From Candidatus Goldiibacteriota bacterium HGW-Goldbacteria-1 (GTDB lineage: Bacteria > Oederibacteriota > PGYV01): 64,000 nucleotides of DNA. Positions within the stretch are counted from its first letter, which is position 1; each line of letters begins with the position of its first letter. The notes below the pieces were generated by a model, which did not search any database, was not told the DNA's origin, and saw nothing but the letters and a program-made list of their open reading frames with translations. The stretch spans positions 16,367-80,366 of the forward strand of contig PGYV01000006.1 of assembly GCA_002839855.1 (NCBI GenBank). The letters run 5' to 3'. Both the position numbers and the translations under genes were made by a program. Of the stretch, positions 21,801-57,543 are shown piece after piece.

Positions 21801-22139
21801 ACTGTAACCCCTGTGATACAGGAAGGGGATAAACAGAAGATTACGGATGTAATGGTTTTCCCGCACCCATATAACGCTTCCAAAAATCCTTACGCCGGCA
21901 TAAAGTTTAACCTTTCCAAAAGCGCGGCTGTGGTAAAGATAAGATTATATTCATCAGCTTTCAGGTTGTTGGAAGAATCGGACATAGCAAAAAACTGCCA
22001 CCCGGGCAGTAATATCGGCGCGATAAGCGGAAGAAGGCTGTCAACAATGTCCAACGGGACGTATTATTTTGTCCTGATCTCGGAAGATAATGCAACAGAG
22101 GTCAGAAGTAAAGTGGATAAGATGATAATAATGAAGTAA
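18850..22139 (+). pseudogene. GH9 endoglucanase - CBM9-like - T-X repeat - C-terminal-domain gene interrupted by two frameshifts
   Basis: Three consecutive ORFs in different frames together give a complete protein. The pieces are a signal peptide + Ig-like N-terminus (frame 1), a GH9 domain with GGWHDAGDFNKY plus a CBM9-like domain IDGSLDEAFW (frame 2), and TFTNTATVPTN repeats plus the C-terminal domain (frame 3). The shifts fall at about 18990-19000 and at 21563/21564, where one 33-nt repeat unit is truncated to 16 nt. Confidence 0.7.
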
Positions 22140-31568: not shown

Positions 31569-32051
31569 ATGACAGAACAGAAAAAGGATAAAAGCCTGAA
31601 TAACCAGGTGGGTTGGAACCTTTACCGCACGGGCATGATGATGCGCAGGGAAGGGGCAAGAATGCTTATGAGGTATAACCTTACCCCGGAGCAATGGCAG
31701 ATAATGATGATACTTGGAAGCAAAGGGGCGCTTACGCAGAAGGCGCTTGGCGATATTACGCTTCAGGACGCGCCTGCTGTTTCAAGGGCTGTTCAGCGCC
31801 TTATAGGAAAAAATTACGCCAAGAAAAGTTCAAGCGATAAAGACAAAAGGGCTGTGCAGGTGGAAATTACCGATAAGGGCGTGCTGCTTCTTTCGGATAT
31901 TGTATTAAGAATGAAAAAAGCGCACAGGGTTAAAGATATTTATCAGAACTTTTCTGATGCTAAAAAAAGGCAGCTTATAAAACTGCTTACTGAATTACGG
32001 TCAAATTTGGAAAATAATATACATCCGGATAACTTTGGAGGAGAAAAATGA
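31569..32051 (+). CDS. MarR-family transcriptional regulator
   Basis: A winged-helix region reads LTPEQWQIMMILGSKGALTQKALGD...DKRAVQVEITDKG. Confidence 0.85.
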   Translation: MTEQKKDKSLNNQVGWNLYRTGMMMRREGARMLMRYNLTPEQWQIMMILGSKGALTQKALGDITLQDAPAVSRAVQRLIGKNYAKKSSSDKDKRAVQVEITDKGVLLLSDIVLRMKKAHRVKDIYQNFSDAKKRQLIKLLTELRSNLENNIHPDNFGGEK

Positions 32052-33535
32052 AAAGATTAATAGCACTGGTTTTAAGCGCGGTATTTATCGCGGGCACGGT
32101 ATCGGCGGAGCCTTTGGCATTTAATGACGCTTTAAAAAACGCTTTTGAAAAAAATACATCCATAACAAAAGCGTATTCGGACTATAAAATTTCAAAAGCG
32201 GTGGTAGAACAGACATACGGCATGTTTGATGTAATGCTTGATGCCGGCGTCAATTATATAGAACAGAGGGACCTTGCAACTTCCCCGCTTTCGCCGTCCG
32301 AATTAAAAGTCCTTTCATATAATGTGGGGCTTTCAGAGAAAATATTCACAGGCGGGTTTCTTGGGTTAAAACTTACAAACGACAGAACCACAATGCTTTA
32401 TGGTGATATTGACCCCATGATGGCGGCGTTTTTAGGGCCGGCAGAAACATACGACCCTTCGCTTTCAATATCCCTTTCTCAGCCTCTGTTAAAAGGCGTA
32501 TGGGGCAGGCCTGATGAAAAAGCCATTGAGATAGGGAAAAAATCCATCCTTCTTTCAAAAGAAGCCCTGAAAAATACTGTTTATAATCAGATATCAGCCC
32601 TGCGTGAATCGTTTTATTTTGTATATATGTCCGATGAAATGCTGAAAACACAGAAAAAGCTGTACGAAGACGCAAGCAAGTTCTATAAGGAAACGCTGAA
32701 TTTAAAGCAGATAGGAATGAGGGAAACAAAAGATGTTTATCAGACGCAGGCTTCCTTATTATCGGCTGAAGCGGGCATTACACCTGCCGAGAATCAGCTT
32801 AAGTTTGCCAAAGAACAGTTTTTGAACCTTGCGGGTTACTCTGACGCGCAGTGGGAAAATATAGAAGTTGAAATGACAGGCGCTGTTGAAGAAATAGAGA
32901 TTCCCGGCGGACTGAATTCCCAAATGGAAGAAACCCTTGTTGATTTTCAGCCCGAAGTTGTAATGGCAAAGCTGGGGATGGATATGACCGGAATTGAAGA
33001 TGATATGAAATTCGCGGACATGCTTCCGGAACTTAACCTTATCGGCAGCTATGGAATTGACGGGCTTGGAACAGATATGGACGGTGCGTTTGATACTCTG
33101 TCCACAAATAATTACAATAACTTTATGGTGGGCGTGAATCTTAAATATTCATTTCCTAACAGGGGAAACATAGCCGCAAAAAGCCAGACAGAAGAAAAAC
33201 TGAAGAAAGCCCGGGAAGATTATGAATTTTTAAGAAGGCAGATGAAGATAATGATAAGGGACGGGTACAGAAAACTGCTTTCCGCTAAAAATGATTATGA
33301 AAAGAAAAAAGAAGCCACAGAACTTCAGAATAAAAGGCTTGGTATAGAAGAAAAAGATTTTAAACAGGGCAGGTCTTCAACAAGGGAACTGTTAATGGCG
33401 CAGACAGACGCTTCAACCGCAAAGTTAAGCGAGATAGGTTCTTTTATTACATATATTCAGGCGGTAAATAACTGGAGTAAAATTTCGGGAAAATATAACG
33501 GGTATTTTGAAGAATACCTTAAAGACAAGGAGTAA
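32048..33535 (+). CDS. outer-membrane efflux protein (TolC-like OEP family)
   Basis: A signal peptide is present and the length is ~495 aa. The architecture is two-repeat and coiled-coil rich. The gene overlaps marR by 4 nt and sits immediately upstream of RND pumps. Confidence 0.7.
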   Translation: MKRLIALVLSAVFIAGTVSAEPLAFNDALKNAFEKNTSITKAYSDYKISKAVVEQTYGMFDVMLDAGVNYIEQRDLATSPLSPSELKVLSYNVGLSEKIFTGGFLGLKLTNDRTTMLYGDIDPMMAAFLGPAETYDPSLSISLSQPLLKGVWGRPDEKAIEIGKKSILLSKEALKNTVYNQISALRESFYFVYMSDEMLKTQKKLYEDASKFYKETLNLKQIGMRETKDVYQTQASLLSAEAGITPAENQLKFAKEQFLNLAGYSDAQWENIEVEMTGAVEEIEIPGGLNSQMEETLVDFQPEVVMAKLGMDMTGIEDDMKFADMLPELNLIGSYGIDGLGTDMDGAFDTLSTNNYNNFMVGVNLKYSFPNRGNIAAKSQTEEKLKKAREDYEFLRRQMKIMIRDGYRKLLSAKNDYEKKKEATELQNKRLGIEEKDFKQGRSSTRELLMAQTDASTAKLSEIGSFITYIQAVNNWSKISGKYNGYFEEYLKDKE

Positions 33536-33538
33536 TTC

Positions 33539-36500
33539 ATGGGCCTGATACGTTATTTTGTAAAGAAAAGTATTTTAGTAAATTTAGTGGCGGTTTTCAT
33601 CACGTTAATCGGTTTCTTTATGTTCTTTACATCCGCAAAGGAAGTGTTTCCAAATATTCAGATGGGTTATATTGTAATAACAACCGTATATCCTCAGGCT
33701 GGTTCCGAAGAAGTTGAAAAGCTTGTCACCATACCCATTGAAAACGCCATAGAAGATGTTGACGGGATTGATAAAATCACTTCCTGGACATCTGAAGGCA
33801 TGTCAATGATAGGAATAGAACTTGTCGCTGACGCTAATATCAAAGAGGCTCTTGATGATATTGAAAAAGCGGTTGATGCTATAAGCGATCTGCCGGACGA
33901 AGCAATGGACCCCAATGTTTTTGAGATTGCGTCTGATATCTTTCCGGTTATTAATGTCTCTGTTTCCGGCGGCAAAGATTATGCACAGCTTAGGGAAGCT
34001 TCAAAAAGGCTTGAAGAAAGGCTTCTGGAAGTAAAGGGTGTGGGTGAAATTGAAATGTGGGGTTATTACGACAAAGCCCTTTGGATAGATGTAGACAAGA
34101 ACGAACTTGACAGATACGGCCTTACGCTTTTTAACTTCATTTCAACACTGCAGGACAGGGATATTTCAATGCCCGCGGGAAACAAGACGTTTGACAGGTA
34201 TGAATACGCGGTAAGGTTCCTGTCTCCCATGGACAGCAAAGAAGATGTTGAAAATGTAATCTTACGTTCTAATGATGCGGGCAGAAAACTTCAGGTAAAA
34301 AATGTCGCTGAAGTAATTGACGGTTTTCAGGACGAAGATATGTACCTGCGTTCGCAGGGCCAAAGGGCTGTTCTGTTTGATGTTTTAAAAAATCAGGGCA
34401 AAGACAGCATTAAAATAGCAAAGCAGGTCCGTGAAATAGCGCTTAACCTTGAAAAAGAATTCAACGGCGATATTAAAGTTTCATTTTCCAATGATATGTC
34501 CATTTACCTTCAGGACAGGCTGGATGTGCTTTATTCAAACGGCGCTTTTGGAGCGCTGCTGGTTGTGGGCATGCTTATGCTTCTGCTCCGCCCATCCATA
34601 GCTGTTTTTACCGCGCTTGGCCTTCCGGTGGCTTTTGGAATATCATTTTTTGCAACAAACCAGTTGGGCATTTCGTTCAACATGATGTCAATTTTCGGTT
34701 TCATAATGGTTCTGGGTATGCTTGTGGATGACGCGATTGTTGTCGGAGAAAATGTCTACCGGCATATGGAAATGGGAAAGGATACATATAACGCCGTTGT
34801 GGACGGGACATCGGAAATGATAATGCCGGTTATTGCTTCTGTGTCAACCACTATCGCGGCATTCTCGCCGCTGATGATGATTGGCGGCATGATGGGAGAA
34901 TTCCTATCTGCCATCCCCAAAGTTATAATTATTGCATTGGCAGCGTCTGTAATAGAATGCTTCTTTATTCTGCCTTCTCATCTGGCGGATTTTGTAAAGC
35001 AGAAAACGCGCGGTAAAGGCGAACAGTTACAGGAGCATTGGTTTGAAGTGCTTAAGGAAAAATACGGCAAACTTCTGGAAATATCCCTGTATAAAAGGGG
35101 TACAACCGCGGTTCTGATAGCCCTTATGTTTATTTTTGGAATAGGGCTTGAAATGAGAAACGGTTTTTCTTTTACTGATTCACAGGTAAATGAAATAGAG
35201 ATAAAACTAAAAACTAATAAAGAGTTTTCAGTGGATGATACGGAAAGAATTGTCAAAGATATAGAAAAAATAGTTTTGGAGCTTGATCCAAAAGACCTTG
35301 AAGCGGTTAACAGTTTTGTGGGTATGTGGAATTCCACAAACGGCCCGCCGACTTTTGCCCCGAATATCGGAAATATTGCGGTAATTCTTCATATAGAAGA
35401 TAACAGAAAGACGAAAGACGCCAATAAGATACTTGAAACGTTAAGAAACCGCATAGGCATGCCGGAAGGCGTAAAGACCCTTGATATTAAAGTTGTTAAA
35501 GGCGGCCCGCCGTCAGGCGAAGAAATTGATGTCGCCATATCCGCGGACAGTTTTGACAGGGCGGTTGCGGTTTCAGAAGAGTTTATGGAAGCGGTAAAAA
35601 AGATTAATTTTGCCGATACTAAAAAAGATTCCGCCGCGTTTTATAACCCTGTTGCTTCTTTAAATACGGATTTTGAAGAGGGCAAAAAAGAATTAAGGTT
35701 TGTTGTTGATGAAGCAAAAGCTTCAAGGGCGGGGGTAAACCTTACGCAGGCAAGTATAATAATGAGGTCCGCGATAGCCGGTTTTAAACTGAAAACCATT
35801 AAAAAACTGGGCGAAGACATAGAGGTTAAAGTAAGGGTGAACGAACAGTCAATTGCCACTATTGATGATGTGCTTCAGTTAAAGGTGCCAAACATGATGG
35901 GCAACAGGATTCTGCTGCGGGAAATCGTGAAAGTTGAACAGGGCACAACATATTCGCAGTTAAAGCATATTGACGGCAAAAAGAGCGTATCGGTAATTGG
36001 AACTCTTAAAAAACCCGTTAAAAAAGACAAAGGCGAATCAAACGTCGTTAAAGCAGAAGCGGATAAAACTGAAAAAACAAAGATAAAAAAAGAACCAAAT
36101 ATAAATGTTAACTTTTTTAACATGAAGATGAAAGGCGTTATTAAGGAATTTGAAGAAAAATATAAAGATGTGCGCTTTGAAACAGGCGGCGAGCAGGAAG
36201 CTATGGCGGAAGGTTTTCAGGATTTGGGAAAAGCTTTTGTTGTCGCGCTCTTTCTGATATTTATTATCCTTGCGACGCTGTTTAACTCGCTTGTTCAGCC
36301 GTTTATAATAATGCTTGCCATACCTTTTGGGTTTATAGGCGTTATGTGGACGCTTGTATTCCACGGCATGTCAATTTCATTTATGGCATTCATGGCGTTT
36401 GTGGGTTTAACGGGTGTTGTTGTAAATAATTCTCTTATTATGGTTTCTTTTATAAACGGCCTGATTGCGGAAGGAAAATCCTTTGAACACGCGATTATTG

Positions 36501-36790
36501 AAGGGTCTAAAACAAGATTAAGGCCGATAGTGCTTACGACTTTCACCACGGTAATCGGGCTTATGCCGCTGGGATACGGATGGTTTGGCGGAAATGACCC
36601 TATGATTACGCCTATGGCGGTTGTGTTTGCGTGGGGGCTGCTGTTTGCCTCTTTTGTAACGCTGTTCATTATTCCAAGTTTTATGGTAACTGTTAATAAT
36701 CTTAAAATTTCCATAAAAAGAAAACTTGGAAAAGGCGGGGAAGAGAAAAAGGCTTTCAGTAAGAAAGAAAGCAGTCAGAAGATAAGTTAA
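33539..36790 (+). CDS. RND efflux transporter (AcrB/HAE1-like), paralog 1
   Basis: The 1083-aa protein has 12 TM segments and two large periplasmic loops. Conserved RND motifs are GLPVAFG, VDDAIVVGEN and FNSLVQPFIIMLAIPFG. Confidence 0.9.
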   Translation: MGLIRYFVKKSILVNLVAVFITLIGFFMFFTSAKEVFPNIQMGYIVITTVYPQAGSEEVEKLVTIPIENAIEDVDGIDKITSWTSEGMSMIGIELVADANIKEALDDIEKAVDAISDLPDEAMDPNVFEIASDIFPVINVSVSGGKDYAQLREASKRLEERLLEVKGVGEIEMWGYYDKALWIDVDKNELDRYGLTLFNFISTLQDRDISMPAGNKTFDRYEYAVRFLSPMDSKEDVENVILRSNDAGRKLQVKNVAEVIDGFQDEDMYLRSQGQRAVLFDVLKNQGKDSIKIAKQVREIALNLEKEFNGDIKVSFSNDMSIYLQDRLDVLYSNGAFGALLVVGMLMLLLRPSIAVFTALGLPVAFGISFFATNQLGISFNMMSIFGFIMVLGMLVDDAIVVGENVYRHMEMGKDTYNAVVDGTSEMIMPVIASVSTTIAAFSPLMMIGGMMGEFLSAIPKVIIIALAASVIECFFILPSHLADFVKQKTRGKGEQLQEHWFEVLKEKYGKLLEISLYKRGTTAVLIALMFIFGIGLEMRNGFSFTDSQVNEIEIKLKTNKEFSVDDTERIVKDIEKIVLELDPKDLEAVNSFVGMWNSTNGPPTFAPNIGNIAVILHIEDNRKTKDANKILETLRNRIGMPEGVKTLDIKVVKGGPPSGEEIDVAISADSFDRAVAVSEEFMEAVKKINFADTKKDSAAFYNPVASLNTDFEEGKKELRFVVDEAKASRAGVNLTQASIIMRSAIAGFKLKTIKKLGEDIEVKVRVNEQSIATIDDVLQLKVPNMMGNRILLREIVKVEQGTTYSQLKHIDGKKSVSVIGTLKKPVKKDKGESNVVKAEADKTEKTKIKKEPNINVNFFNMKMKGVIKEFEEKYKDVRFETGGEQEAMAEGFQDLGKAFVVALFLIFIILATLFNSLVQPFIIMLAIPFGFIGVMWTLVFHGMSISFMAFMAFVGLTGVVVNNSLIMVSFINGLIAEGKSFEHAIIEGSKTRLRPIVLTTFTTVIGLMPLGYGWFGGNDPMITPMAVVFAWGLLFASFVTLFIIPSFMVTVNNLKISIKRKLGKGGEEKKAFSKKESSQKIS

Positions 36791-36893
36791 ATGGAAATCC
36801 CGGATTTATTTTACCGGGCATAACAGGCTGAATGTTATAATATAGTGGAAAGGCCGTTTACGGTTTTTCCACTATATATTTACAGGGGTGAAC

Positions 36894-39800
36894 ATGAAGA
36901 TAATTGAATTTTTTGCCAAGAAACACATACTGGTAAATCTTCTGGCTGTGTTTGTGACTGCCGCGGGTTTTTATACTTTTCTTACTTCGCCCAAAGAAGC
37001 TCTGCCTGAAATCAAATTCGGGCTGATAGTGATACAGACTCTTTATCCGTCAGCCGCGCCGCAGGAAGTTGAAAAACTTATTACCACCCCGATAGAAGAG
37101 GCAATAGACGGCATAAAGGGTATTGACAGTATTACATCTTCATCATCTGAAGGGGTTTCAATAGTAAGTATCACTTTAAAATCGGGAATTAAAGACGCTT
37201 CTGTTATTTTAAATGACATTAAAGGTGCAATTGATAAAATACGCACTCTGCCCGCTGACGCGCAGGACCCGGTTGTAAGCGAACTTACAACTGATGAATT
37301 TCCGGTAATACAGCTTTCCGTTTCCGGCGGAAGCAATTACGGCGAATTAAGAGAAGCCGCAAAATTTATAGAAAACAAACTGTCTAAAATCCGCGGCGTT
37401 ACAAAGGTTGATAAAATTGGTTATTATGACAAAGTTATATGGGTTGAATCTGACGCGGAAAAGGAAAGAAAGTACGGCGTTACTCTTTTTAACATTGCCA
37501 ATGCCCTTAAAAACAGGAATATTTCAATACCCGCCGGCAATAAGGTGTTTGACGGTTATGAGAATTCCATCAGGGCCCTTGCGGAAATTAAAGACAGCAA
37601 AGATGTCGGCGGTGTGATTCTAAGGTCAAACGATGTGGGCAGATACATAAATATTGCTGACGTGGCGGATGTTTATGAAGGATTTTCTGATTCAGACTTT
37701 TTAACAAGGGCGGACGGAGAGACCGCGATACTCTTTACAATACTTAAAACAAGCGGCGATGACACGCTTCGTATCAGCAGGGATGTAAAAGAAAATATAA
37801 AAAGCATAAAAACTCTTATACCGCCGTCGGTCAGGATAAAATTTTCCAATGACACATCATTATTTGTCAAAGACAGGCTTAATATTGTATTTTCAAACGG
37901 CATAGCCGGGGCGTTTTTGGTTGTAGCCATCCTGCTTTTGATGCTAAGGCCGTCAATAGCCGTAATGACCGCGCTTGGCCTTCCTGTGGCATTTGGACTT
38001 GCGCTTATAACTTTAAAAGCGCTTGGATTATCCTATAATATGCTTTCGCTTTTTGGCTTTGTTATGGCGCTTGGGCTTCTTGTAGATGACGCCATAGTTG
38101 TGGGGGAAAATGTTTTCAGGCATATGGAAATGGGAAAAAGCGCCATGCAGTCAGCTGTTGACGGGGCCGCGGAAATGGTAATTCCCGTAACCGCGTCAGT
38201 TGCAACCACTATAGCCGCGTTTTTTCCTCTGTTAATGGTAGGCGGTGTGCTTGGAAGTTTTCTGGCGCCTATTCCGACGGCGATTATTATAGCTATTACC
38301 GCGTCATTGATGGAATGCTACATAATACTGCCTTCGCATCTGGCTTATTTCGGGCAGTTTGGCGGTTCCGGCAGGCTGGCCCCGCTGCAGGATTCATTTA
38401 CAAACACACTGAAAAATATTTACCTGAAAGTTCTTACCCCGGTTCTTAAACACAGATGGAAATTTATCGGTGTTATGATGGTTATTTTCCTGGGGGCGGT
38501 TTTCGCGGGCGGGATGAAAGGGGTGGAATTTTTCAGCCAGGAAACTGACGCCATAAACATAAAAATAAAGTGTGATAATCTTTTTTCCATAACGGATACG
38601 GATAAGGTTGTAAGGCAGATAGAACAGAAGCTTGACGGAAATCTTTTAAAAGATGACGTGGAAACAATTTTCTACTATATAGGAAAGTATCCAAATTCCC
38701 AGGGGCAGCCCGAAACCGGCAGCAATCTTGCGCAGATAGAAATTTATCTGAAATTAAAAGCTGAAAGAAAAACCAAAGACACCAATGACGTGATAAGCGC
38801 GGTCAGGCAGTTTGTAGGCAAGCCCGAAGGTGTAACCGACATAAAAATATCCGGAGTCACCAGAGAAGGCGGACCGGGAAGAAATGACATTGATTATTCG
38901 GTTGTGGGCGATTCGTATGAAAAACTTCAGCCTGCGGTTTTGGAACTTATTACGGCCGCGAAAACCATCAGCGGGGTCACTGAAATATCGGCTAACCTTG
39001 AACAGGGAAAGAAAGAACTGCGCCTTATCATGGACGAAAAGAAAGCGTCACAGGCCGGTATTATGCTGTCGGATATAGGAATGATGCTGCGCGGAGCAGT
39101 AGCGGGCGTAAAAGTAACATCAATAAAGAGGGACGGGGAAGATATAGACGTCATAGTAAAGGCAAAAGATTCAGAGATAAAATCATTAGATGACCTGCTG
39201 TCCCTGAAAATCCCAAACAGGACAGGCGCAAATATACCCCTGAAGAATCTGGTATCAATAGAAAAAGGCTACAGCTATTCCGTGCTTAAACACAAGGATA
39301 CAAAAAAGGCAATAAGTGTTCTGGGGTCTATTGATAAAAAAGAAACAACCGTAAACAGCGTAAATTCAAAACTGCTTGAAAAAATAGCGGCGCTTAAGAT
39401 GAAATATCCGGATGTTGAATTTATAACAGGCGGGGAGTTTAAAGAGATGCGGGAAACGTTCAGGTCTTTGGGGAACGCTTTTGCCGTGGCATTATTCCTT
39501 ATATTCATTATATTGGCCACGCTTTTTAATTCACTGATTCAGCCGTTTATTATAATGCTTGCAATACCTTTTGGATTTATGGGAGTTATGCTTACGCTTG
39601 CAATTCACGGCATGCCTGTATCATTCGGAGCGTTTATGGGGTTTGTGGGGCTGTCAGGCGTGGTTGTAAATAACTCTTTGATAATGACGGATTTTATAAA
39701 CAAAAATATTAAAAGCGGGATTGCTTTTGAAGAAGCTGTTTTAAGCGGTGCAATATCAAGGTTAAGGCCTATCTTTCTTACAACCGCAACCACCGCGGCC

Positions 39801-40010
39801 GGTTTATTGCCGCTGGGATACGGCCTTTTCGGCGCAAACGACCCATTCTTAAAACCTGTAGCGCTTGTTTTTGCGTGGGGTCTGATATTTTCCACGGTGG
39901 TAACTCTTTTTATGATACCGGTATTTACCGTTATGATGCACAATTTAAAAGTAACCTTTTTACGCGTTTTCCGCAAAGACAAAAACAACGAATACGCGTT
40001 TAAAAAATAG
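36894..40010 (+). CDS. RND efflux transporter (AcrB/HAE1-like), paralog 2
   Basis: The same RND motifs are present and the protein is about 45% identical to paralog 1 by eye. RBS AGGGG precedes the ATG at 36894. Confidence 0.9.
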   Translation: MKIIEFFAKKHILVNLLAVFVTAAGFYTFLTSPKEALPEIKFGLIVIQTLYPSAAPQEVEKLITTPIEEAIDGIKGIDSITSSSSEGVSIVSITLKSGIKDASVILNDIKGAIDKIRTLPADAQDPVVSELTTDEFPVIQLSVSGGSNYGELREAAKFIENKLSKIRGVTKVDKIGYYDKVIWVESDAEKERKYGVTLFNIANALKNRNISIPAGNKVFDGYENSIRALAEIKDSKDVGGVILRSNDVGRYINIADVADVYEGFSDSDFLTRADGETAILFTILKTSGDDTLRISRDVKENIKSIKTLIPPSVRIKFSNDTSLFVKDRLNIVFSNGIAGAFLVVAILLLMLRPSIAVMTALGLPVAFGLALITLKALGLSYNMLSLFGFVMALGLLVDDAIVVGENVFRHMEMGKSAMQSAVDGAAEMVIPVTASVATTIAAFFPLLMVGGVLGSFLAPIPTAIIIAITASLMECYIILPSHLAYFGQFGGSGRLAPLQDSFTNTLKNIYLKVLTPVLKHRWKFIGVMMVIFLGAVFAGGMKGVEFFSQETDAINIKIKCDNLFSITDTDKVVRQIEQKLDGNLLKDDVETIFYYIGKYPNSQGQPETGSNLAQIEIYLKLKAERKTKDTNDVISAVRQFVGKPEGVTDIKISGVTREGGPGRNDIDYSVVGDSYEKLQPAVLELITAAKTISGVTEISANLEQGKKELRLIMDEKKASQAGIMLSDIGMMLRGAVAGVKVTSIKRDGEDIDVIVKAKDSEIKSLDDLLSLKIPNRTGANIPLKNLVSIEKGYSYSVLKHKDTKKAISVLGSIDKKETTVNSVNSKLLEKIAALKMKYPDVEFITGGEFKEMRETFRSLGNAFAVALFLIFIILATLFNSLIQPFIIMLAIPFGFMGVMLTLAIHGMPVSFGAFMGFVGLSGVVVNNSLIMTDFINKNIKSGIAFEEAVLSGAISRLRPIFLTTATTAAGLLPLGYGLFGANDPFLKPVALVFAWGLIFSTVVTLFMIPVFTVMMHNLKVTFLRVFRKDKNNEYAFKK

Positions 40011-40419: not shown

Positions 40420-43400
40420 ATGAACAAACTGAAAGCTAAGCTGCTCTCCTTATTAATAATATTTATTCTGGCAGGCGCGGTATTCGCCGAACCCTATACC
40501 TGGAAAAGCGTGCAGGTGGGCGGCGGCGGATTTGTGACCGGTTTTGTTTATCACCCCCTTGAACAGAACCTTCTGTACGCGCGCACAGACATGGGCGGCG
40601 CTTACAGGTGGGACAATACAAACAGCAAATGGATTCCCATAACAGATTCCATGACAAGGGACAACGCCGATAATATGGGTATTTTAGGAATGGCGGTTGA
40701 CCCGTCTGATGTAAACAGAGTCTACATGCTTTGCGGCAAATACACACAGAGCTGGGCGGTCAATGGGAATTTTCTTGCGTCAAATGATAAAGGCAATACC
40801 TGGACAATTAACGCGCTTAACTTTAAAGTGGGCGGCAACGAAGTTGGCCGCGGCGCAGGCGAAAGGGTGGCGGTTGACCCTAATCTTGGAACTGTAATAT
40901 TTGTCGGAAGCTCCGGCACCACTCCAAGCGGATTATGGAAATCCACGAACAGAGGGACTTCCTTTACACAGGTAACATCATTCCCGCAGACAATAATAAA
41001 TTTTATTATCTTTGATAAAAATTCAACTGTCACAGCCGCCGGCACACAGACGGTTTATGTGGGAGCGGGCGTTAACGGCAGCAGCCTTTATAAAAGCACG
41101 GATGGCGGCGCTACATGGACTTTGGTTGCAGGGCAGCCGGCAGGCGTGCAGGCGTTCCGCGGAGTCTTAATCGGCACCACATTTTATCTTACATACGCAA
41201 GCAATAACGGGCCCAATAACAGCAACGCCACGGGTTATGTTTATAAATACAATACATCAACAGGGGCATTCACCAATATCACGCCTGTTACCACCGGCTT
41301 TGGTTATTCCGGTATATCGGTTGACCCACAGAACACTGACAACATAATTGTTTCCACGCTGTTTCGATGGACGCCAATGGACGCTATTTATTACTCCACA
41401 AACGGCGGCACAAGCTGGACAGAAAAAAATGCGACAGCCACATGGGACAGGACATACGCGCCATATTCTGCTTCAAGCAGCCCGCACTGGGTAACAGATG
41501 TTCAGATAGACCCGTTTAACTCCAACAAAGCAATCTGGAATACCGGATACGGATTATGGATGACTTCTAACCTGCAGAGCGCGCCTGTGAAATGGGAATT
41601 TAATAACAGGGACCTTGAAGAAACGGTTCCACTGCAGATTATAAGCCCGCCTTCCGGCGCTAATCTGCTGACCGCAATGGGCGATATAGACGGTTTCAGG
41701 CACAACGATTTGGATGTTTCTCCGCCGCAGGGAAGGTACAGCCCGAATAAAGGCACCACATTATCAATAGCATTCGCGGAAAGCGTACCGCTTAAAATTG
41801 TAAAAGGGTATAATTCATCTCCGTTCGGCGCTTATTCAACTGACGGCGGCACAACGTGGATAGATTTTTCTTCTTATCCTTCCGGTACTTCAGGCGGCGG
41901 CAGCAAGGCGATTGCAATTTCCGCAAACGGCACTAACATAGTCTGGTCGCCTGCAGGTGCTGCAGTTTCATACTCTACTAATAACGGCTCTTCGTGGACA
42001 ACATCAGCGGGAAGCCCGCCGGCGAATTTTAGCCCGGTGGCTGACAGAATAAATTCAAGTAAGTTTTATTTATATGACGGTGTTACCGGCACAATGTGGC
42101 GTTCCACAAATGGCGGCGCAACATTTGCCGCTGCAGCATCAGGGCTGCCAATGGTTCCAAGCTGGGCCCCGGCTGACGGCGTCTGCGCGGCAGCGCCGGG
42201 CAATGAAGGGCACTTATGGATAACAACAGCCGCAGGCGGACTTTACAGGTCAACTGATTCAGGCGCCACAGCGGTAAAAGTAAACAGCGTTACAGCGGCT
42301 TACAGAATTGGTTTTGGAATGGCGGCATCGGGCTACACGTATCCGGCAATTTATATGCAGGGGATTGTAGGCGGGGCCCTTGGTTTCTACCGGTCAATTG
42401 ACACGGGCGCAACGTGGGAAAGAATAAATACAATTGCCAATCAGTACGGCTACGTACATCAGATAACAGGCGATCCGCGAATTTACGGCAGGTGTTATGT
42501 TTCAGCAGAAGGCCGCGGCGCGCTTTACGGCGATCCTGCAGGCACCCCAACCGACACACCGACAAGCACTTACACAGTAACACCGGGCGGCCCCACATTC
42601 ACATTCACACAGACGCCCACAGATACGGCAACCGCAACGCCTACAAACGCGTACAAACTTATATATGACGGCGATACACCGGGATACATGCTTGCTGACG
42701 GCGCTATTAATACAAATACTGCCGGTTCTTTAACCGAAGGCGCAGGCGGAGTTACAGGAAATGGAATGATAGCCGCTTATACATCCCCGGCTTATTGGGG
42801 GCAGGCGCAGTGGGACATCCCCGGCGCAAACCAGCAGATGGACGGGAATACGGATATTGTATTTAACATAAAAGCTTTAACAGGTACTGTTTCACAGTAT
42901 CTGCTTTATCTTGACTGGACTTACGCGTTTATAACTGTCGCAAACTATCTTGAAGAAGGCGGCGCGATAGACACAACATGGAAGACTGTCAGAATTCCTA
43001 TAGCGGACGTACTTTCCAATACACATACTGCCATTTATTACCTTGCGTTTATTAACAACGCCGATACAGACTACTCCGTAATAGTTGACAATGTCCGCTT
43101 TGAAGGGGCGGCCGCGGTTTCAACATCCACGTTTACAAACACCGCGACACAAACAAGTACTTACACATCAACTTACACGGCTACAAATACATACACGCAA
43201 ACGGAAACAGAAGTGCCCGCGACAAATACTTTTACGCAGACGTATACCGAAACTTTTACTGCCACAGCAACAGACACAAACCTGATATCAACCAATACTT
43301 TTACATCAACGCCTACTGATACCTCAACAGCCACATATACCAATACAGAAACACAGACTTCGGCGGATACCCCCACAGACACATTCACCAACACGTCAAC

Positions 43401-45270
43401 TTATACAAACACAGAAACAGAAACCCCCACGCAGACTTACACATTCACGGACACGGTAACCCCGGGCGGGCCCACATTTACGGACACACCTACAGCCACA
43501 CAGACTTTTACGCCTATGCCTTGCGCGTGCGGTGTGGTTTACGGCAACACCAATACAACCGCAATGGTAGGGGCAAGTATATATAATTCGCTGACCGCCA
43601 TTCCTATATATGTTTCCGAAAACACAATAATGGAAAGCATGGGTGTCCACCTTGTCTCAAGCGCCGGCGGATATATAAAGATGGCGCTTTACACAAATGA
43701 CGGGTCAGCGCCTTTGAATCTTATTGTATCTTCAACAGACACGCCTTCGGCTGCGGGCTGGAATATCGTGGACGTTGTTGATACGCCTTTAACCGCGGGT
43801 GTTTATTGGATAGTTATAAATACAGAAAGCGGAATACTGGTAAGCGCAATGGCGGGAATGCAGAACGCGGAGCTTTACACCGGATATTTCAGTGAAGCTT
43901 CCGCAATGCCGGCAACATTCCCGACAGCCGGTGTATCGCCCGGCAACGGCAGTTACGCGCTTGTAATTAACGCGTGCCCGGGTTCATGTGACACACCCAC
44001 GGAAACGCCAACGCCTGTTCTGCCGTGCATGTGTGAAGATGATTTTGGTTTACAGTATACTCCGACAGCGGCAACGGTAAATATATCCGGTTATGTTTCC
44101 GCAAACGTTTATTATATGGGATATAACGGCACATTAAGCGGAATTGACCTGCACGTGGAATCGGGTTCGGGATATGTCCGCCTTGCGGTTTATTCAAATG
44201 ACAATTCCACGGGGACAAATGTCCCTTACATACTGCAGGTGCAGACAGAAGAAACTGCGGTAACAACAGGGGATAACTTAATACCGCTGCCGTCAGCTCA
44301 TTTGAATTCAGGAATCTATTGGATAGCAATTCAAATGTCGCCCGGACTTATGGTTTCAAGGGATATAGGCAGCAGCGGCGATGAAATGTATTATGAAATG
44401 ACTTACGGAAATTTTCCAGGATTTCTGCCGTGGCCAATGGGGCAAAGCGCGGGCAATTGGGCATTCAAGGTAAACTACTGCCCGGATACCTGCAATACCC
44501 CTACAGAGACTTTTACAGCCACTTATACTTACACAGACACACAGACGGCGACATTTACGCAGACGTACACAGAAACATATACCGCAACAGAAACAGTTAC
44601 AACAGGCGGGCCTACATTTACGTTTACTGATACGCCCACAGAAACCTTTACAGAAACTGCGACAGAAATATTTACAGAGACTCCCACGGAAACAGCGGCA
44701 GAGACTGCGACATACACAAACACCGTCCCGCCCGCGTCCACTTCAACATACACGCATACAATCACTGATACATACACTTATACAGCCACGCACACTTATA
44801 CAAACACAGCGACTTTTTCACACACAAACACTTTAATACCTTCAGACACTTACACACAGACTCCGTCACAGACGCCTACAAACACCAACACTTACACGGC
44901 AACAGTAAGTGTTCCCACAAACACATTCACGCCCACACCCGTGGCAACAGAAGCGGAATTTAAGGTGAAAGACCAGCTTGCTTACCCGAACCCGGTAAAC
45001 CCCGGCGACAACCCGTATATTTTTGTGAAGTATTACGCCACAAGAAATTACAAAGAGGTTCATTTCAGAATGTATTCGTCGTCGTTAAGGCTGGTGGATG
45101 AAATCGCGTATAAAAATTCTTATACAGCGGGCAATCACGTAATCCCGATACCGGATAAACATTTTAAAGGCCTCGCCAACGGCGCTTATTACTATTTAAT
45201 TCTGCTTATTGACAACGACGGCAAAGAAGCCCGCGGCCCGGTAGGGAAGATAATAGTTCTTAAGAAGTGA
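40420..45270 (+). CDS. secreted BNR/Asp-box repeat beta-propeller glycoside hydrolase (GH74-like) with a CBM-like domain, two Cys-bracketed unknown domains, T-X linkers and C-terminal sorting domain
   Basis: At least 8 S-x-D-x-G-x-T-W type motifs are present (STDGGATW, STNGGTSW, STDGGTTW, STNNGSSW, STNGGATF, STDSGATA, SIDTGATW). The CBM-like domain at 42655-43110 is homologous to the one at 7244-7700. The tandem domains lie at 43505-43990 and 44000-44490. The C-terminal domain lies at 44940-45267. Confidence 0.6.
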   Translation: MNKLKAKLLSLLIIFILAGAVFAEPYTWKSVQVGGGGFVTGFVYHPLEQNLLYARTDMGGAYRWDNTNSKWIPITDSMTRDNADNMGILGMAVDPSDVNRVYMLCGKYTQSWAVNGNFLASNDKGNTWTINALNFKVGGNEVGRGAGERVAVDPNLGTVIFVGSSGTTPSGLWKSTNRGTSFTQVTSFPQTIINFIIFDKNSTVTAAGTQTVYVGAGVNGSSLYKSTDGGATWTLVAGQPAGVQAFRGVLIGTTFYLTYASNNGPNNSNATGYVYKYNTSTGAFTNITPVTTGFGYSGISVDPQNTDNIIVSTLFRWTPMDAIYYSTNGGTSWTEKNATATWDRTYAPYSASSSPHWVTDVQIDPFNSNKAIWNTGYGLWMTSNLQSAPVKWEFNNRDLEETVPLQIISPPSGANLLTAMGDIDGFRHNDLDVSPPQGRYSPNKGTTLSIAFAESVPLKIVKGYNSSPFGAYSTDGGTTWIDFSSYPSGTSGGGSKAIAISANGTNIVWSPAGAAVSYSTNNGSSWTTSAGSPPANFSPVADRINSSKFYLYDGVTGTMWRSTNGGATFAAAASGLPMVPSWAPADGVCAAAPGNEGHLWITTAAGGLYRSTDSGATAVKVNSVTAAYRIGFGMAASGYTYPAIYMQGIVGGALGFYRSIDTGATWERINTIANQYGYVHQITGDPRIYGRCYVSAEGRGALYGDPAGTPTDTPTSTYTVTPGGPTFTFTQTPTDTATATPTNAYKLIYDGDTPGYMLADGAINTNTAGSLTEGAGGVTGNGMIAAYTSPAYWGQAQWDIPGANQQMDGNTDIVFNIKALTGTVSQYLLYLDWTYAFITVANYLEEGGAIDTTWKTVRIPIADVLSNTHTAIYYLAFINNADTDYSVIVDNVRFEGAAAVSTSTFTNTATQTSTYTSTYTATNTYTQTETEVPATNTFTQTYTETFTATATDTNLISTNTFTSTPTDTSTATYTNTETQTSADTPTDTFTNTSTYTNTETETPTQTYTFTDTVTPGGPTFTDTPTATQTFTPMPCACGVVYGNTNTTAMVGASIYNSLTAIPIYVSENTIMESMGVHLVSSAGGYIKMALYTNDGSAPLNLIVSSTDTPSAAGWNIVDVVDTPLTAGVYWIVINTESGILVSAMAGMQNAELYTGYFSEASAMPATFPTAGVSPGNGSYALVINACPGSCDTPTETPTPVLPCMCEDDFGLQYTPTAATVNISGYVSANVYYMGYNGTLSGIDLHVESGSGYVRLAVYSNDNSTGTNVPYILQVQTEETAVTTGDNLIPLPSAHLNSGIYWIAIQMSPGLMVSRDIGSSGDEMYYEMTYGNFPGFLPWPMGQSAGNWAFKVNYCPDTCNTPTETFTATYTYTDTQTATFTQTYTETYTATETVTTGGPTFTFTDTPTETFTETATEIFTETPTETAAETATYTNTVPPASTSTYTHTITDTYTYTATHTYTNTATFSHTNTLIPSDTYTQTPSQTPTNTNTYTATVSVPTNTFTPTPVATEAEFKVKDQLAYPNPVNPGDNPYIFVKYYATRNYKEVHFRMYSSSLRLVDEIAYKNSYTAGNHVIPIPDKHFKGLANGAYYYLILLIDNDGKEARGPVGKIIVLKK

Positions 45271-52311: not shown

Positions 52312-54255
52312 TTGTTTAAAAAGACTATACTGACATTAGCGGTATTTTTCCTGCTAAGCGGAACAGCATTTTCAGATATAGCACAAATCGGGACTACTTC
52401 TAACAACTTTCTGAAGATTATGGCACCCGCAAAGGCCGCCGCAATGGGTGAAACTTATGTTGCGCTGGCGGATGATGTGAATTCCATTCAATATAATCCG
52501 GCGGGATTGTCAAAAAGCATGCTTTCAGGAATATCGTTCACTCATATTATATGGTTTCAGGACATCGCGTTTGAAAACCTTAACCTTTCTTTTCCTTCAC
52601 CTGCGGGCACTTTTGGTTTTTCAATTAATTGGATGCACTTTGCCGACACAATGTTTAAAACAGAAGTTGACCCCGCTTCCATAACAGGATATTCCACAGA
52701 ATACGAATTCAGCCCTTATAGTTTTTACGGAACTCTGGCGTACAGCAAAGAATTTTCACGCGACTTTTACATAGGCGCAGCCCTTAAAATATTAAATTAC
52801 GCCATTGACCCCAATGACGACAAAGGTTCCGCGTTATCATTTATGGCTGATTTTGGACTTATCTATGACATGGAATTTTTAGAAGGGCTGTCCGCGGGCG
52901 TATCATTTAAGAACCTTGGCCCCGGCACTTCTTTTGTAAAAGAAACTTACCTTCAGCCTATGAACATCCTTGCCGGAATAGGCTTTGAAAGCCAATACTT
53001 TGACATAGAAGGCGGCGTTGAATATTACTCTGACAACAATATAAATTACTCCATCGGCGCAAATATCACTCTGTTTGAAGCCTTAAATTTAAGGGCCGGA
53101 TACAAAGGCGGCACAGTGCCGCGCCTTTCTTTTGGCGGCGGCATAGAATTCGGCGGAGCGGCAATTGATTACGCTTTTGTTCCTTATACTATAGACGGGC
53201 TTGGTTATACGCACAGGGCCACATTAACTTACAGCTTCGGCTCTCCGGAAGTTAAATTAAAAACTTATCCTGCTGTGTTCTCGCCAAACGGGGACAAAGT
53301 TGTGGATTACGTAAGGTTATTACCCGATGTCATGTCGCCGTCCAAAGCAAGGGCCGCGTCAATAAAAATTACAGACGCAATGGGAATAGCGGTCAGGACA
53401 GTAAAAATAAATCTCCGCAAAAAACTGTTCTGGAACGGAATGGATTCTCTTGGCATGCCTGCCGCAGAAGGCGATTACTTTATTCAGCTTGATGTTGATT
53501 ATGGCAAGGGAATTAAATCATCCTCCGCGCCGGCAAGGGTAGAAGTGGACTTAACACCGCCTTCTATTACTGTTGACGGCAGCCCCAAACTTGTAAAGCC
53601 GGGCAGGCTTGATACCCTGCTTGTACCGGTTAATTTTAACCTGTCCGCTTTTGACAAAAACGGCATTGGGCAGTGGAAACTTGTCATCTACGGCCCTGAT
53701 AACCTGCCTTTCAGAACTTATACGGGAACAGGCGACCCTATGATGGTAACATGGGACGGCAAAGACGACCTTGGCATAAACCAGGTGGATACAGGCAAAA
53801 CATATTCGTACGCGCTGTTTGCCTCTGACAGCGTTGGCAACTGGGGCAAAAGCAGGGCTAAACAGGTAAAAATACTTTTCAGAGAAGTGGTTATTAACCT
53901 TTCCGCTGACACGCTTTTTGACCTTGGCAAAGCGGACGTAAAGATAGCGGTTTACAGCGATATCAAAAAGATTGCCGACCAGATAAAGGGCTATCAGAAC
54001 CCCAAAATAACAGTGGAAGGCCATACAGATAACCTGCAGATGAAGCGCGGTGTTTACGCGGACAATATGGAACTTTCAAAAGCCAGGGCGCAGGCGGTTG
54101 TTAATTTCTTTGTGGAACTTTTTGAAATGGACAGGAATATTTTCAGGGTGGTGGGTTATGGCGAAAGCAGGCCGGTTGCTGATAATAACACTCCTGAAGG
54201 CAGGCGTGATAACAGAAGGGTTACAATAAGAATTTCAGGGATTGTTTATGAATAA
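52312..54255 (+). CDS. outer-membrane protein: N-terminal PorV/FadL-like beta-barrel + two FlgD-Ig-like domains + C-terminal OmpA peptidoglycan-binding domain
   Basis: A TTG start follows RBS AGGAGAAA, and a signal peptide is present. The N-terminal motif AKAAAMGETYVALADDVNSIQYNPAGLS resembles the PorV/UPF0164 barrel signature. FSPNGDKVVDY...WNGMD..G..AAEGDY and a second similar unit follow. The C-terminus VEGHTDNLQ...LSKARAQAV...RRVTIRI is a classic OmpA_C domain. Confidence 0.6.
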   Translation: MFKKTILTLAVFFLLSGTAFSDIAQIGTTSNNFLKIMAPAKAAAMGETYVALADDVNSIQYNPAGLSKSMLSGISFTHIIWFQDIAFENLNLSFPSPAGTFGFSINWMHFADTMFKTEVDPASITGYSTEYEFSPYSFYGTLAYSKEFSRDFYIGAALKILNYAIDPNDDKGSALSFMADFGLIYDMEFLEGLSAGVSFKNLGPGTSFVKETYLQPMNILAGIGFESQYFDIEGGVEYYSDNNINYSIGANITLFEALNLRAGYKGGTVPRLSFGGGIEFGGAAIDYAFVPYTIDGLGYTHRATLTYSFGSPEVKLKTYPAVFSPNGDKVVDYVRLLPDVMSPSKARAASIKITDAMGIAVRTVKINLRKKLFWNGMDSLGMPAAEGDYFIQLDVDYGKGIKSSSAPARVEVDLTPPSITVDGSPKLVKPGRLDTLLVPVNFNLSAFDKNGIGQWKLVIYGPDNLPFRTYTGTGDPMMVTWDGKDDLGINQVDTGKTYSYALFASDSVGNWGKSRAKQVKILFREVVINLSADTLFDLGKADVKIAVYSDIKKIADQIKGYQNPKITVEGHTDNLQMKRGVYADNMELSKARAQAVVNFFVELFEMDRNIFRVVGYGESRPVADNNTPEGRRDNRRVTIRISGIVYE

Positions 54256-55367: not shown

Positions 55368-57543
<2,176 letters not shown>

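Follow-up and report, generated by a model that had tools for sequence, protein, structure and literature searches.

A cysteine-bracketed tandem module in a GH74 protein of Candidatus Goldiibacteriota is a candidate glycan-binding cassette

Results

Architecture of the host protein

The gene described here lies in a 64-kb stretch of DNA (the window) from a Candidatus Goldiibacteriota MAG. An exact-sequence look-up finds its product in NCBI under the accession PKL91444.1, where it is annotated as a hypothetical protein, and the same gene is present on ENA and Logan contigs. The features of the gene, as read from the ORF list and its translation, from database searches and from structural models, are as follows.

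40420..45270, + strand: whole gene, encoding a multidomain GH74 protein of 1616 aa, probably secreted (ORF list, translation)
40420..40488, + strand: probable Sec signal peptide, MNKLKAKLLSLLIIFILAGAVFA followed by EP (inferred by reading the translation)
40483..42543, + strand: GH74 catalytic domain, aa 22–708 (phmmer against the PDB)
42649..43113, + strand: CBM11-like module, aa ~744–898 (weak PDB match)
43114..43518, + strand: Thr-alternating (TxTxT) low-complexity linker (translation)
43519..43992, + strand: D1, aa 1034–1191, from PCAC to CPGSC, predicted disulfide-stapled beta-sandwich module
43993..44022, + strand: D1–D2 linker, ten residues, T/P-rich (pLDDT <50 in the didomain model)
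44023..44496, + strand: D2, aa 1202–1359, from PCMC to CPDTC, paralogue of D1 (BLASTP against D1; clusters with D2 domains from other proteins)
44497..44949, + strand: second Thr-alternating linker (translation)
44950..45267, + strand: C-terminal sorting-like domain, ~105 aa (common to seven other ORFs of the window)

In a phmmer search of the PDB, residues 22–708 match 6p2m with an E value of 5e-251 (839.6 bits) and other GH74 xyloglucanases, 2cn2 and 6mgj among them, with E values of ~1e-142. By this full-length catalytic-domain match, the host is at the level of sequence a true GH74, xyloglucanase-type enzyme, in agreement with the GH74-like protein recognised in a first-pass annotation of the same DNA. 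GH74 catalytic domains are composed of tandem seven-bladed propellers. The CBM11-like module matches the CBM11 of C. thermocellum endoglucanase H (1v0a/2lro) weakly (E=0.009), finds no match in Pfam, and shares 39% identity with a module of the GH5 ORF at 6131–8191. That the host already has this module was counted against glycan binding by D1 and D2. Thr accounts for 262 of the 1616 residues of the whole protein. The C-terminal domain, whose homologues match FlgD_ig and Por_Secre_tail weakly, resembles a T9SS C-terminal sorting domain in its sequence and may be one, and the protein is probably secreted. A match of D1 to Por_Secre_tail (13.4 bits, E=0.056) was rejected as spurious.

D1 and D2 form a paralogous repeat bracketed by cysteines

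D1 and D2, each 158 aa in length, align end to end over 163 columns with 30% identity and 47% positives (BLASTP, E=1e-19). The similarity is far above chance, and the two modules are a real paralogous repeat. D1 begins PCACGVVYGN and ends NACPGSCD, while D2 begins PCMCEDDFGL and ends NYCPDTCN. The first-pass annotation had described two tandem, related domains of ~160 aa that start with PCxC and end with CPxxC, a description borne out here, with all of its quoted motifs in frame in ORF 40420–45270; its coordinates for the two domains (43505–43990 and 44000–44490) are off by 6–23 bases, and the frame that starts at 43505 is full of stop codons. A domain HMM run over all six frames of the 64-kb window found no copies beyond D1 and D2.

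The bracketing cysteines, four in D1 and four in D2, make up eight of the 11 Cys of the whole protein. Cys bracketing is a feature of the family. Specifically, among 79 near-full-length copies, C2 and C153 alone are present in 37, all four cysteines (C2, C4, C153 and C157, domain numbering) in 31, and none in five. From these counts, the cysteines are gained and lost as coupled N- and C-terminal pairs, as would be predicted for the disulfide staples proposed in the first-pass annotation, and the bonds themselves, C2–C153 and C4–C157, are those that we infer. Near-invariant positions of the family are R54, Y58, W81–N82 and Y96–W97. An argument from strand periodicity about the faces formed by R54/A56/Y58/D60 and W97/A99/Q101 was dropped as too speculative. 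D2 of the window has GDN at the position of the near-invariant GWN; this loss of the Trp was counted against glycan binding.

The four-Cys form is an ordered pair carried by diverse hosts

The four-Cys form is always found as an ordered D1–D2 pair, which we refer to as the cassette. Across 14 proteins, domains at the same position score a mean of 111 bits against each other, versus 79 bits for domains at different positions, and among the four best matches listed per domain, all but one entry is the same-position domain of another protein. By these scores, D1 is orthologous to D1 and D2 to D2 across proteins. The linker that joins them is 6–32 aa long among homologues and has a pLDDT below 50 in the AlphaFold2 model of the didomain, for which the pTM is 0.65; with this pTM and a disordered linker, a fixed D1–D2 interface lacks firm support and was set aside. 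Named members are mostly Goldiibacteriota, as judged from a few NCBI names.

The cassette is carried by GH74 proteins, GH9 cellulases, a PL14+DUF4434 protein, a triple CIA30/CBM11 protein and stand-alone secreted proteins. This range of hosts for the same ordered pair argues against the xyloglucan-type substrate put forward in the first-pass annotation. The stand-alone proteins P0009 and P0015 start with signal-like sequences. Elsewhere the cassette sits after the catalytic and CBM modules and before the lineage-specific C-terminal sorting-like domain, and the extreme C-terminus of 15 of the 17 cassette-bearing homologues matches an HMM built from the C-terminal domain copies of the window. 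Neighbouring enzymes of the window carry malectin pairs or CBM9 where the cassette sits, and the cassette occupies a CBM slot. It is found in just one of about nine carbohydrate-active enzymes of this cluster. Seven other enzymes of the window have the same C-terminal domain without D1–D2, indicating that sorting does not need the cassette.

D1 and D2 belong to a large superfamily

Word-indexed searches returned one close orthologue fragment (P0001) for a D1–D2 query and six short proteins for a 63-sequence profile, and a genome scan with the didomain as a single query gave no relative among 185,579 species genomes. Because the word index was apparently swamped by the Thr/Pro-rich linkers, we used an exhaustive HMMER profile search instead, which located the domain in 1334 representative proteins at E≤1e-3 and in 180 at E≤1e-10. 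Most of these proteins hold two to five copies. In the wider family, the domain also lies beside modules that are not CAZymes (NHL, PKD, GSDH, Peptidase_C1 and MopE), and this company was counted against glycan binding.

Neither D1 nor D2 matches a CBM, Ig or lectin family of Pfam-A or NCBIfam at E≤1. The first-pass annotation, which had seen no CBM or Ig family in the modules, is upheld on this point, and in neither library did the profile of a known CBM or lectin family match clearly. It is very improbable, in our judgement, that the cassette belongs to a defined CAZy CBM family that Pfam and the PDB do not contain, or to another curated lectin family, and was missed here.

Relatives of D1 and D2 do reach curated families, below their thresholds. 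In a Pfam-A scan of 63 family members, only DUF4082 and Lectin_like were matched by more than one member, and the individual scores given are all under threshold. DUF4082 (PF13313; 143 model positions, cut-off 28.4 bits) is matched by 14 of the 63 (best E=6e-6; those given score 14–18 bits), with domain positions ~35–115 aligned to model positions ~20–100, while D1 and D2 find no match to it at E≤1. Lectin_like (PF18560, from Cwp84; cut-off 27 bits), whose fold corresponds to residues 335–497 of 4ci7, is matched under threshold by three of the 63, and by neither D1 nor D2. The choice-of-anchor R model (NCBIfam NF041539; 155 positions, cut-off 30 bits) is matched by 35 of the 63 relatives (best E=2.2e-7; those given score 15.8–28.8 bits, under the cut-off), with no match for D1 or D2 at E≤10; judged from these profile scores, the relation is one of remote homology rather than membership. 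PHROG 25864 was assessed by significant HMM match, as its library has no curated cut-off. D1 matches it significantly (E=5.1e-7, 30.5 bits) over the domain core only, residues 24–114 aligning with positions 47–142 of a 193-position model, and 34 of the 63 family members also match (best E=6.3e-10). The matches to choice-of-anchor R, DUF4082, Lectin_like and PHROG 25864 are collinear where they are given per protein. A literature search on DUF4082 and 'choice-of-anchor R' found nothing functional.

It is thus well supported that D1 and D2 belong to a large extracellular superfamily, functionally uncharacterised, of which the four-Cys pair is a variant. The modules are new, as first proposed, in that they lack a match in Pfam-A and NCBIfam; as part of an existing superfamily, revealed by the sub-threshold matches of their relatives, they are not.

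The predicted fold resembles CBM-like and lectin-like domains

AlphaFold2 predicts the domain as an all-beta sandwich with high confidence (pLDDT 95.7, pTM 0.90), in accordance with the beta-sandwich suggested from the sequence. Among solved structures, the closest folds are those of mycobacteriophage tail proteins, the CBM-like domain, as yet unclassified, of FjoAcXE-type acetylxylan esterases, the Cwp84 lectin-like domain and PHR domains. In BFVD, 70 fold matches were obtained at E≤1e-3; most are unnamed, and the named top matches include minor tail, collagen-repeat and pectate-lyase-type proteins. The fold, as modelled, is common among phage proteins.

The closest solved relative is cyanophage A-4(L) gp25 (A4 gp25; 9jwb chain Z), labelled 'plastocyanin-like' by its depositors and matched by the family profile A2 with E=4e-4. 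The CBM-like domain of A4 gp25 probably belongs to PHROG 25864. A4 gp25 is an auxiliary capsid cement protein that forms trimers on the virion; the role shown for it is capsid stabilisation through protein–protein interactions, which was counted against glycan binding, and glycan binding has been suggested at most (PMC12002296).

Discussion

On balance, we favour the reading that D1–D2 is a non-catalytic glycan-binding cassette, not specific for xyloglucan, within a large uncharacterised superfamily. D1–D2 would then be an extra CBM or lectin unit, placed after the catalytic and CBM modules and ahead of the C-terminal sorting-like domain, and would keep the enzyme, or the surface of the cell on which it is displayed, attached to polysaccharide of the plant cell wall. 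With CBM-like or lectin-like domains as the nearest solved folds, a binding role is plausible; glycan binding observed experimentally for some relatives, the diversity of the hosts and the place of the cassette in a CBM slot also count in its favour. The first-pass annotation's proposal of a binding module for a xyloglucan-type substrate is therefore retained as to binding and abandoned as to xyloglucan.

A bolder form of this reading is tentative and, to us, somewhat doubtful. It holds that the four-Cys pair founds a new, largely Goldiibacteriota-specific CBM family, that the two non-identical sandwiches jointly bind an insoluble plant cell-wall glucan (cellulose or a cellulose–xyloglucan composite), and that this explains part of the adhesion of Goldbacteria to cellulose and gives the choice-of-anchor R/DUF4082/PHROG 25864 superfamily its first function. 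Goldbacteria were captured through binding to cellulose, in a paper that mentions neither GH74 nor this domain (PMC7031533); an organism of this kind fits the favoured glycan-binding reading as well.

Other roles have to be weighed against glycan binding. The cassette could dock the enzyme on a surface protein or on an envelope glycan of its own cell, thereby building a surface enzyme complex comparable to cohesin–dockerin, Cwp84 or A4 gp25. As a trimer, A4 gp25 attaches to capsid proteins (PMC12002296), the enzyme Cwp84 is associated with the S-layer (PMC4089489), homologues in phage tails bind glycans of the bacterial envelope (PMC13033339), and the cassette and the lineage-specific C-terminal domain occur together in 15 of 17 homologues. 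Attachment of this kind is nonetheless unlikely in our estimate: a cassette present in one of about nine CAZymes of the cluster fits a general assembly device poorly, and A4 gp25 is anchored to the capsid mainly by a separate N-terminal arm, not by its CBM fold (PMC12002296). A passive spacer or stalk, in which rigid stapled beads and Thr-rich linkers keep the catalytic domain off the cell surface without a ligand, would suit a cassette placed between long low-complexity linkers near the C-terminal sorting-like domain, with a predicted disordered stretch of 6–32 aa between its two halves. We consider it quite unlikely, as a spacer needs no two distinct paralogues in fixed order across GH74, GH9 and PL14 hosts and leaves the near-invariant polar and aromatic residues (R54, Y58, W81–N82, Y96–W97) unexplained. 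In addition, seven enzymes nearby have this C-terminal domain and manage without the cassette, and stand-alone proteins composed of a signal peptide, D1–D2 and the C-terminal domain exist.

These stand-alone proteins, together with the 'plastocyanin-like' label of 9jwb_Z, could also hint at a catalytic role for D1 and D2, or at binding of a metal or redox cofactor. The pattern of conservation makes this barely credible: the invariant positions are Gly, Tyr, Pro, Trp and the stapling Cys, and we reject catalytic and copper-site readings because no His, Asp/Glu or Cys motif typical of an active or copper site is conserved. Close fold matches, moreover, contain no enzyme except where the fold is an accessory domain.

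If the cassette does bind polysaccharide, it would found a new CBM family and open to experiment, for the first time, a superfamily with more than 1300 representative protein clusters, which takes in choice-of-anchor R, DUF4082, the Cwp84 lectin-like domain and many tail and capsid proteins of phages. Such binding would also help to explain how Goldiibacteriota, an uncultured candidate phylum, adheres to cellulose and breaks it down, and would tie bacterial enzyme-targeting modules to the receptor-binding domains of phages. On the applied side, small binding modules locked by disulfides make useful fusion partners for biomass enzymes. Should polysaccharide binding fail, D1 and D2 would still represent a well-delimited, confidently modelled domain family outside the coverage of Pfam and NCBIfam.

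Several known systems can be compared with the cassette. Choice-of-anchor R (155 positions) and DUF4082 (143) have lengths like that of the module, and their collinear matches, in 35 and 14 of the 63 family members respectively, span the conserved core R-x-A-x-Y ... GWN ... G-x-YW; both are found in multidomain secreted proteins whose C-terminal anchors vary, and their library descriptions mention neither the four-Cys staple nor obligate D1–D2 pairing. The PHR domains of MYCBP2 and BTBD2 (3gbw, 3hwj, 3no8) are eukaryotic and intracellular, with no sequence similarity to the module detected; they are not known to act as lectins or to bind carbohydrate, which was counted against glycan binding. 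A4 gp25 is 15–17% identical to the module, has TGD in place of GWN in the aligned stretch, and has a single copy of the domain with an N-terminal capsid anchor, in contrast to the paired D1–D2 (PMC12002296). The lectin-like domain of Clostridioides difficile Cwp84 (4ci7, PF18560) binds Ca2+ and packs on the cysteine protease and propeptide, and its role is described as unclear by its authors (PMC4089489). The mycobacteriophage tail proteins (Douge gp20 central fibre, 8zdp/8zdq; Bxb1 gp29 tail spike, 9d93) are 10–20% identical to the module and are parts of trimeric virion fibres whose targets are bacterial envelope glycans. Specifically, on arrays, mycobacterial glycans are bound by the CBM-like domains of Douge gp20 (PMC13033339); D1 aligns with a part of gp20 that may be one of these. 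[quoted passage not shown] This domain is present in one copy without Cys staples and, unlike the linker-separated D1 and D2, is packed tightly on the SGNH catalytic domain as part of the active site; in PbeAcXE it contributes Arg25, Asn26 and Arg139 to the contacts with the MeGlcA-Xyl ligand (PMC9105624).

Two related cysteine-bracketed modules in the GH74 protein

The 1616-aa GH74 protein is encoded by the largest ORF of its region of the window and is an exact match to NCBI PKL91444.1, annotated as "hypothetical protein" in a Candidatus Goldiibacteriota MAG. Its features are as follows.

40420-45270, + strand: ORF of the GH74 protein
aa 1-23: putative Sec signal-peptide-like region, as read from the translation
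aa 22-708: bona fide GH74 domain (PDB 6p2m, E=5e-251)
42649-43113 (aa ~744-898): weakly CBM11-like module
43114-43518: Thr-alternating linker
43519-43992, + strand (aa 1034-1191): D1, PCACGVVYGN ... NACPGSCD
44023-44496, + strand (aa 1202-1359): D2, PCMCEDDFGL ... NYCPDTCN
44497-44949: Thr-alternating linker
44950-45267: shared C-terminal domain, ~105 aa

The CBM11-like module is thus followed by long Thr-alternating linkers, D1, a 10-aa linker, D2, a linker and the C-terminal domain. Over their full length, D1 and D2 share 30% identity and 47% positives (BLASTP E=1e-19), and each contains four bracketing cysteines, together 8 of the 11 cysteines of the protein. What the first-pass annotation had observed here, two related, cysteine-bracketed segments, is confirmed; all the peptides it quoted are found in frame. 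Its coordinates were 6-23 bases off and its start at 43505 was out of frame. The window contains no further copies of the module besides D1 and D2.

The ~155-aa CBM11-like module is 39% identical to a module (~7220-7730) of the GH5 ORF 6131-8191. For the copy in the GH74 protein, Pfam gives nothing and the single PDB match is weak (1v0a, E=0.009); it may be a divergent CBM11. The linkers, which are 135-150 aa long and also occur in neighbouring enzymes, follow the pattern TxTxTxT with Y, F, N, D, E or Q interposed, and threonine makes up 16% of the residues of the protein. These linkers may be O-glycosylated or extended, and their repeats seem prone to frameshifts.

A domain family missed by curated libraries

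D1 and D2 give no Pfam-A match at E<=1, which bears out the earlier impression, by eye, that they match no common CBM or Ig family; they also give no meaningful NCBIfam match at E<=10 and no PDB match by sequence. A word-indexed search found solely a fragment of a close orthologue (87% identity). We then built a profile from the 4 available copies and searched it exhaustively over 1.84 billion representative proteins, retrieving 1334 proteins at E<=1e-3, of which 180 reach E<=1e-10 and 29 reach E<=1e-30, and most of the best 150 proteins carry 2-5 copies. On this sequence evidence, D1 and D2 represent a real domain family missed by curated libraries.

Conservation was counted over 79 near-full-length copies, in D1 numbering. 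Specifically, G9 (79/79), Y58 (78/79), P65 (75/79), L68 (70/79), S72 (61/79), G80-W81-N82 (78, 70 and 63 of 79), L91 and G94 (68 and 67), Y96-W97 (79 and 76), A99 (60/79) and P131 (74/79) are conserved, as are C2 (70/79) and C153-P154 (71 and 62 of 79), with C4 and C157 conserved in ~40% of copies each. C2 and C153 occur without the other pair in 37 copies, all four cysteines occur in 31 and none in 5, the pattern expected for two disulfides, whose pairing we infer, that would tie the N-terminus to the C-terminus.

Remote sequence and fold relatives

We scanned 63 family members singly against profile libraries.

Remote profile matches among 63 family members (members matched; best E)
NCBIfam NF041539, "choice-of-anchor R": 35/63; 2.2e-7
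Pfam DUF4082: 14/63; 6e-6
Cwp84 Lectin_like: 3/63
PHROG 25864: 34/63; 6e-10

D1 of the window itself matches PHROG 25864 (E=5e-7). The matches shown for each protein are collinear across the conserved core and every one lies under the curated cut-off (choice-of-anchor R, <=28.8 bits against 30; DUF4082, 14-18 bits against 28.4), indicating that the modules share a superfamily with these families and are members of none by the curators' criteria. In a literature search, choice-of-anchor R was not discussed and DUF4082 was given no function.

Fold relatives (fold-comparison score)
17.8: 9jwb_Z, cyanophage A4 capsid protein
14.5: 9d93, mycobacteriophage Bxb1 tail spike gp29
13.0: 9euf, phage phi812 baseplate protein
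12.8: 9kqz, polyvinyl-alcohol esterase (SGNH)
12.7: 7tog, acetylxylan esterase PbeAcXE (SGNH)
12.2: 4ci7, Cwp84 lectin-like domain
10.0-10.9: 3gbw, 3no8 and 3hwj, PHR domains
10.1: 7tok, isolated FjoAcXE "CBM"
~6-7: various ordinary CBM32, CBM6 and F5/8C domains

Foldseek gives the same picture and adds the central fibre gp20 of mycobacteriophage Douge (E=1.8e-4), and the family profile finds 9jwb_Z by sequence (E=4e-4). A viral structure library yields 70 matches at E<=1e-3, the majority unnamed; the top matches that do have a name are chiefly minor tail, collagen-repeat and pectate-lyase-type proteins.

An ordered D1-D2 pair

The family comprises three tiers: the four-cysteine form (CxC ... 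CPxxC), always in exactly two tandem copies; the two-cysteine form, in 3-5 tandem copies; and distant cysteine-free copies. Among 14 four-cysteine proteins, each domain's four top-listed matches are, with one exception overall, domains at the same position in other proteins, and same-position pairs score a mean of 111 bits versus 79 bits for different-position pairs. It follows that the D1-D2 pair is ancient and travels as a unit with a fixed order.

Architectures of cassette-bearing homologues
GH74: window protein, P0002, P0023
GH9: P0017, P0021, P0022
PL14 plus DUF4434: P0019
Three CIA30/CBM11 modules: P0006
Stand-alone (signal-like N-terminus, D1-D2, linker, C-terminal domain, nothing else): P0009, P0015

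The window's C-terminal domain, used as an HMM, matches at the extreme C-terminus in 15 of 17 cassette proteins, and named members are Goldiibacteriota, except one short contig binned as Spirochaetia. The D1-D2 linker is T/P-rich and varies from 6 to 32 residues across homologues, and in the didomain AF2 model (pLDDT 84.8, pTM 0.65) it has pLDDT < 50, figures that do not point to a fixed D1-D2 interface.

In D2 of the window, GWN is replaced by GDN (44257-44265, aa 1280-1282), at a position where Trp is present in 70/79 copies. The change recurs in the orthologue P0001 (87% identity); in P0002, a homologue at 54% identity, the Trp is retained, and D2 of P0015 has Glu. An acidic residue in this place suggests that the Trp is exposed rather than part of the core, and the function of the window's D2 may, to judge from its sequence, have changed or been lost.

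In a different genome (locus L083, 8001-9937, on an 868-kb contig), the 283-aa protein P0152 carries this domain family only, and the GH5 cellulase gene that follows it directly in the same orientation begins within its gene, another domain-cellulase association.

Gene cluster and shared C-terminal domain

The window holds a cellulolytic gene cluster whose enzymes, of families GH5, GH9, GH116 and GH74, come with malectin pairs, CBM9 and the shared C-terminal domain.

6131-30932, 40420-45270, 55368-56450: closely packed genes for carbohydrate-active enzymes, all on one strand (GH5, GH9, GH9 with two malectins, GH5 with malectin, GH9 with CBM9, GH9, GH116 with two malectins, GH74, GH5)
32048-40010: mid-way interruption (outer-membrane factor gene and two AcrB-type RND transporter genes)

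The DXS gene of the window has one relative at 84% (a MAG) and none other > 50%. Goldbacteria were named cellulose degraders because they adhered to labelled cellulose, and their commonest CBM is CBM11; the text of that paper mentions neither GH74 nor the D1/D2 domain (PMC7031533).

The C-terminal domain is common to eight secreted enzymes of the window, the GH74 protein and the ORFs ending at 8191, 10473 (a weak match, E=0.012), 15168, 18546, 22139, 25871 and 30932. Its motif, YPNP ... LRIYSS.FRL ... KMIILK, reads like that of a T9SS or FlgD-Ig-type sorting domain; the window copies fall under Pfam and TIGRFAM thresholds, and homologues give weak FlgD_ig and Por_Secre_tail matches. A 647-aa protein (52312-54255, +) has a C-terminal OmpA domain and an internal FlgD Ig-like domain, and may be an envelope protein tied to the sorting or anchoring of these enzymes. 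The GH9-CBM9 ORF 18962-21607 (+) leaves frame inside its Thr-rich linker repeat, ending '...TFTSTDVYKYGNCSDKYFH*'; ORF 21264-22139, which overlaps it in a different frame, picks up the same 'TFTNTATVPTNTF' repeat and bears the shared C-terminal domain. This arrangement in 18962-22139 (+) resembles a frameshift within the repeat, either an assembly error or the mark of a pseudogene.

Putative function of the cassette

We cautiously favour D1-D2 as a putative non-catalytic glycan-binding cassette. It occupies the slot that malectin pairs or CBM9 occupy in neighbouring enzymes. Seven enzymes of the window bear the C-terminal domain but lack the cassette, which argues against a sorting or general anchoring role. 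Its closest fold relatives so far tested bind glycans or help glycan binding. In particular, on glycan arrays the CBM-like domains of Douge gp20 bound alpha-glucan and LAM/AM fragments of mycobacterial type (PMC13033339), and Arg25, Asn26 and Arg139 of the PbeAcXE CBM-like domain contributed to bound MeGlcA-Xyl (PMC9105624); the Cwp84 lectin-like domain is of unknown function according to its source paper (PMC4089489). The first-pass annotation had suggested that the modules may bind a xyloglucan-type substrate; that link is not supported, since GH9 and PL14 hosts and stand-alone forms show that the cassette is not xyloglucan-specific.

Docking onto a protein partner or the cell's own envelope gains from A4 gp25, an auxiliary capsid cement protein whose body is a CBM according to its authors and "might" bind host receptors (PMC12002296). 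We regard such attachment as unlikely. That the cassette is a passive stalk is decidedly unlikely, as two diverged paralogues kept in one order, with aromatic and polar residues conserved, speak against a simple spacer. Membership of an existing CAZy CBM family is very improbable, and a catalytic or metal-binding role scarcely credible. For the D1-D2 cassette, the fold is already known, and its superfamily has curated function-less models for sister families. What is new is a well-delimited subfamily undetected by any curated model, its inferred two-disulfide staple, and the fixed-order pair in which it invariably occurs on carbohydrate-active enzymes of a candidate phylum, making D1-D2 a good candidate for a putative new CBM family.
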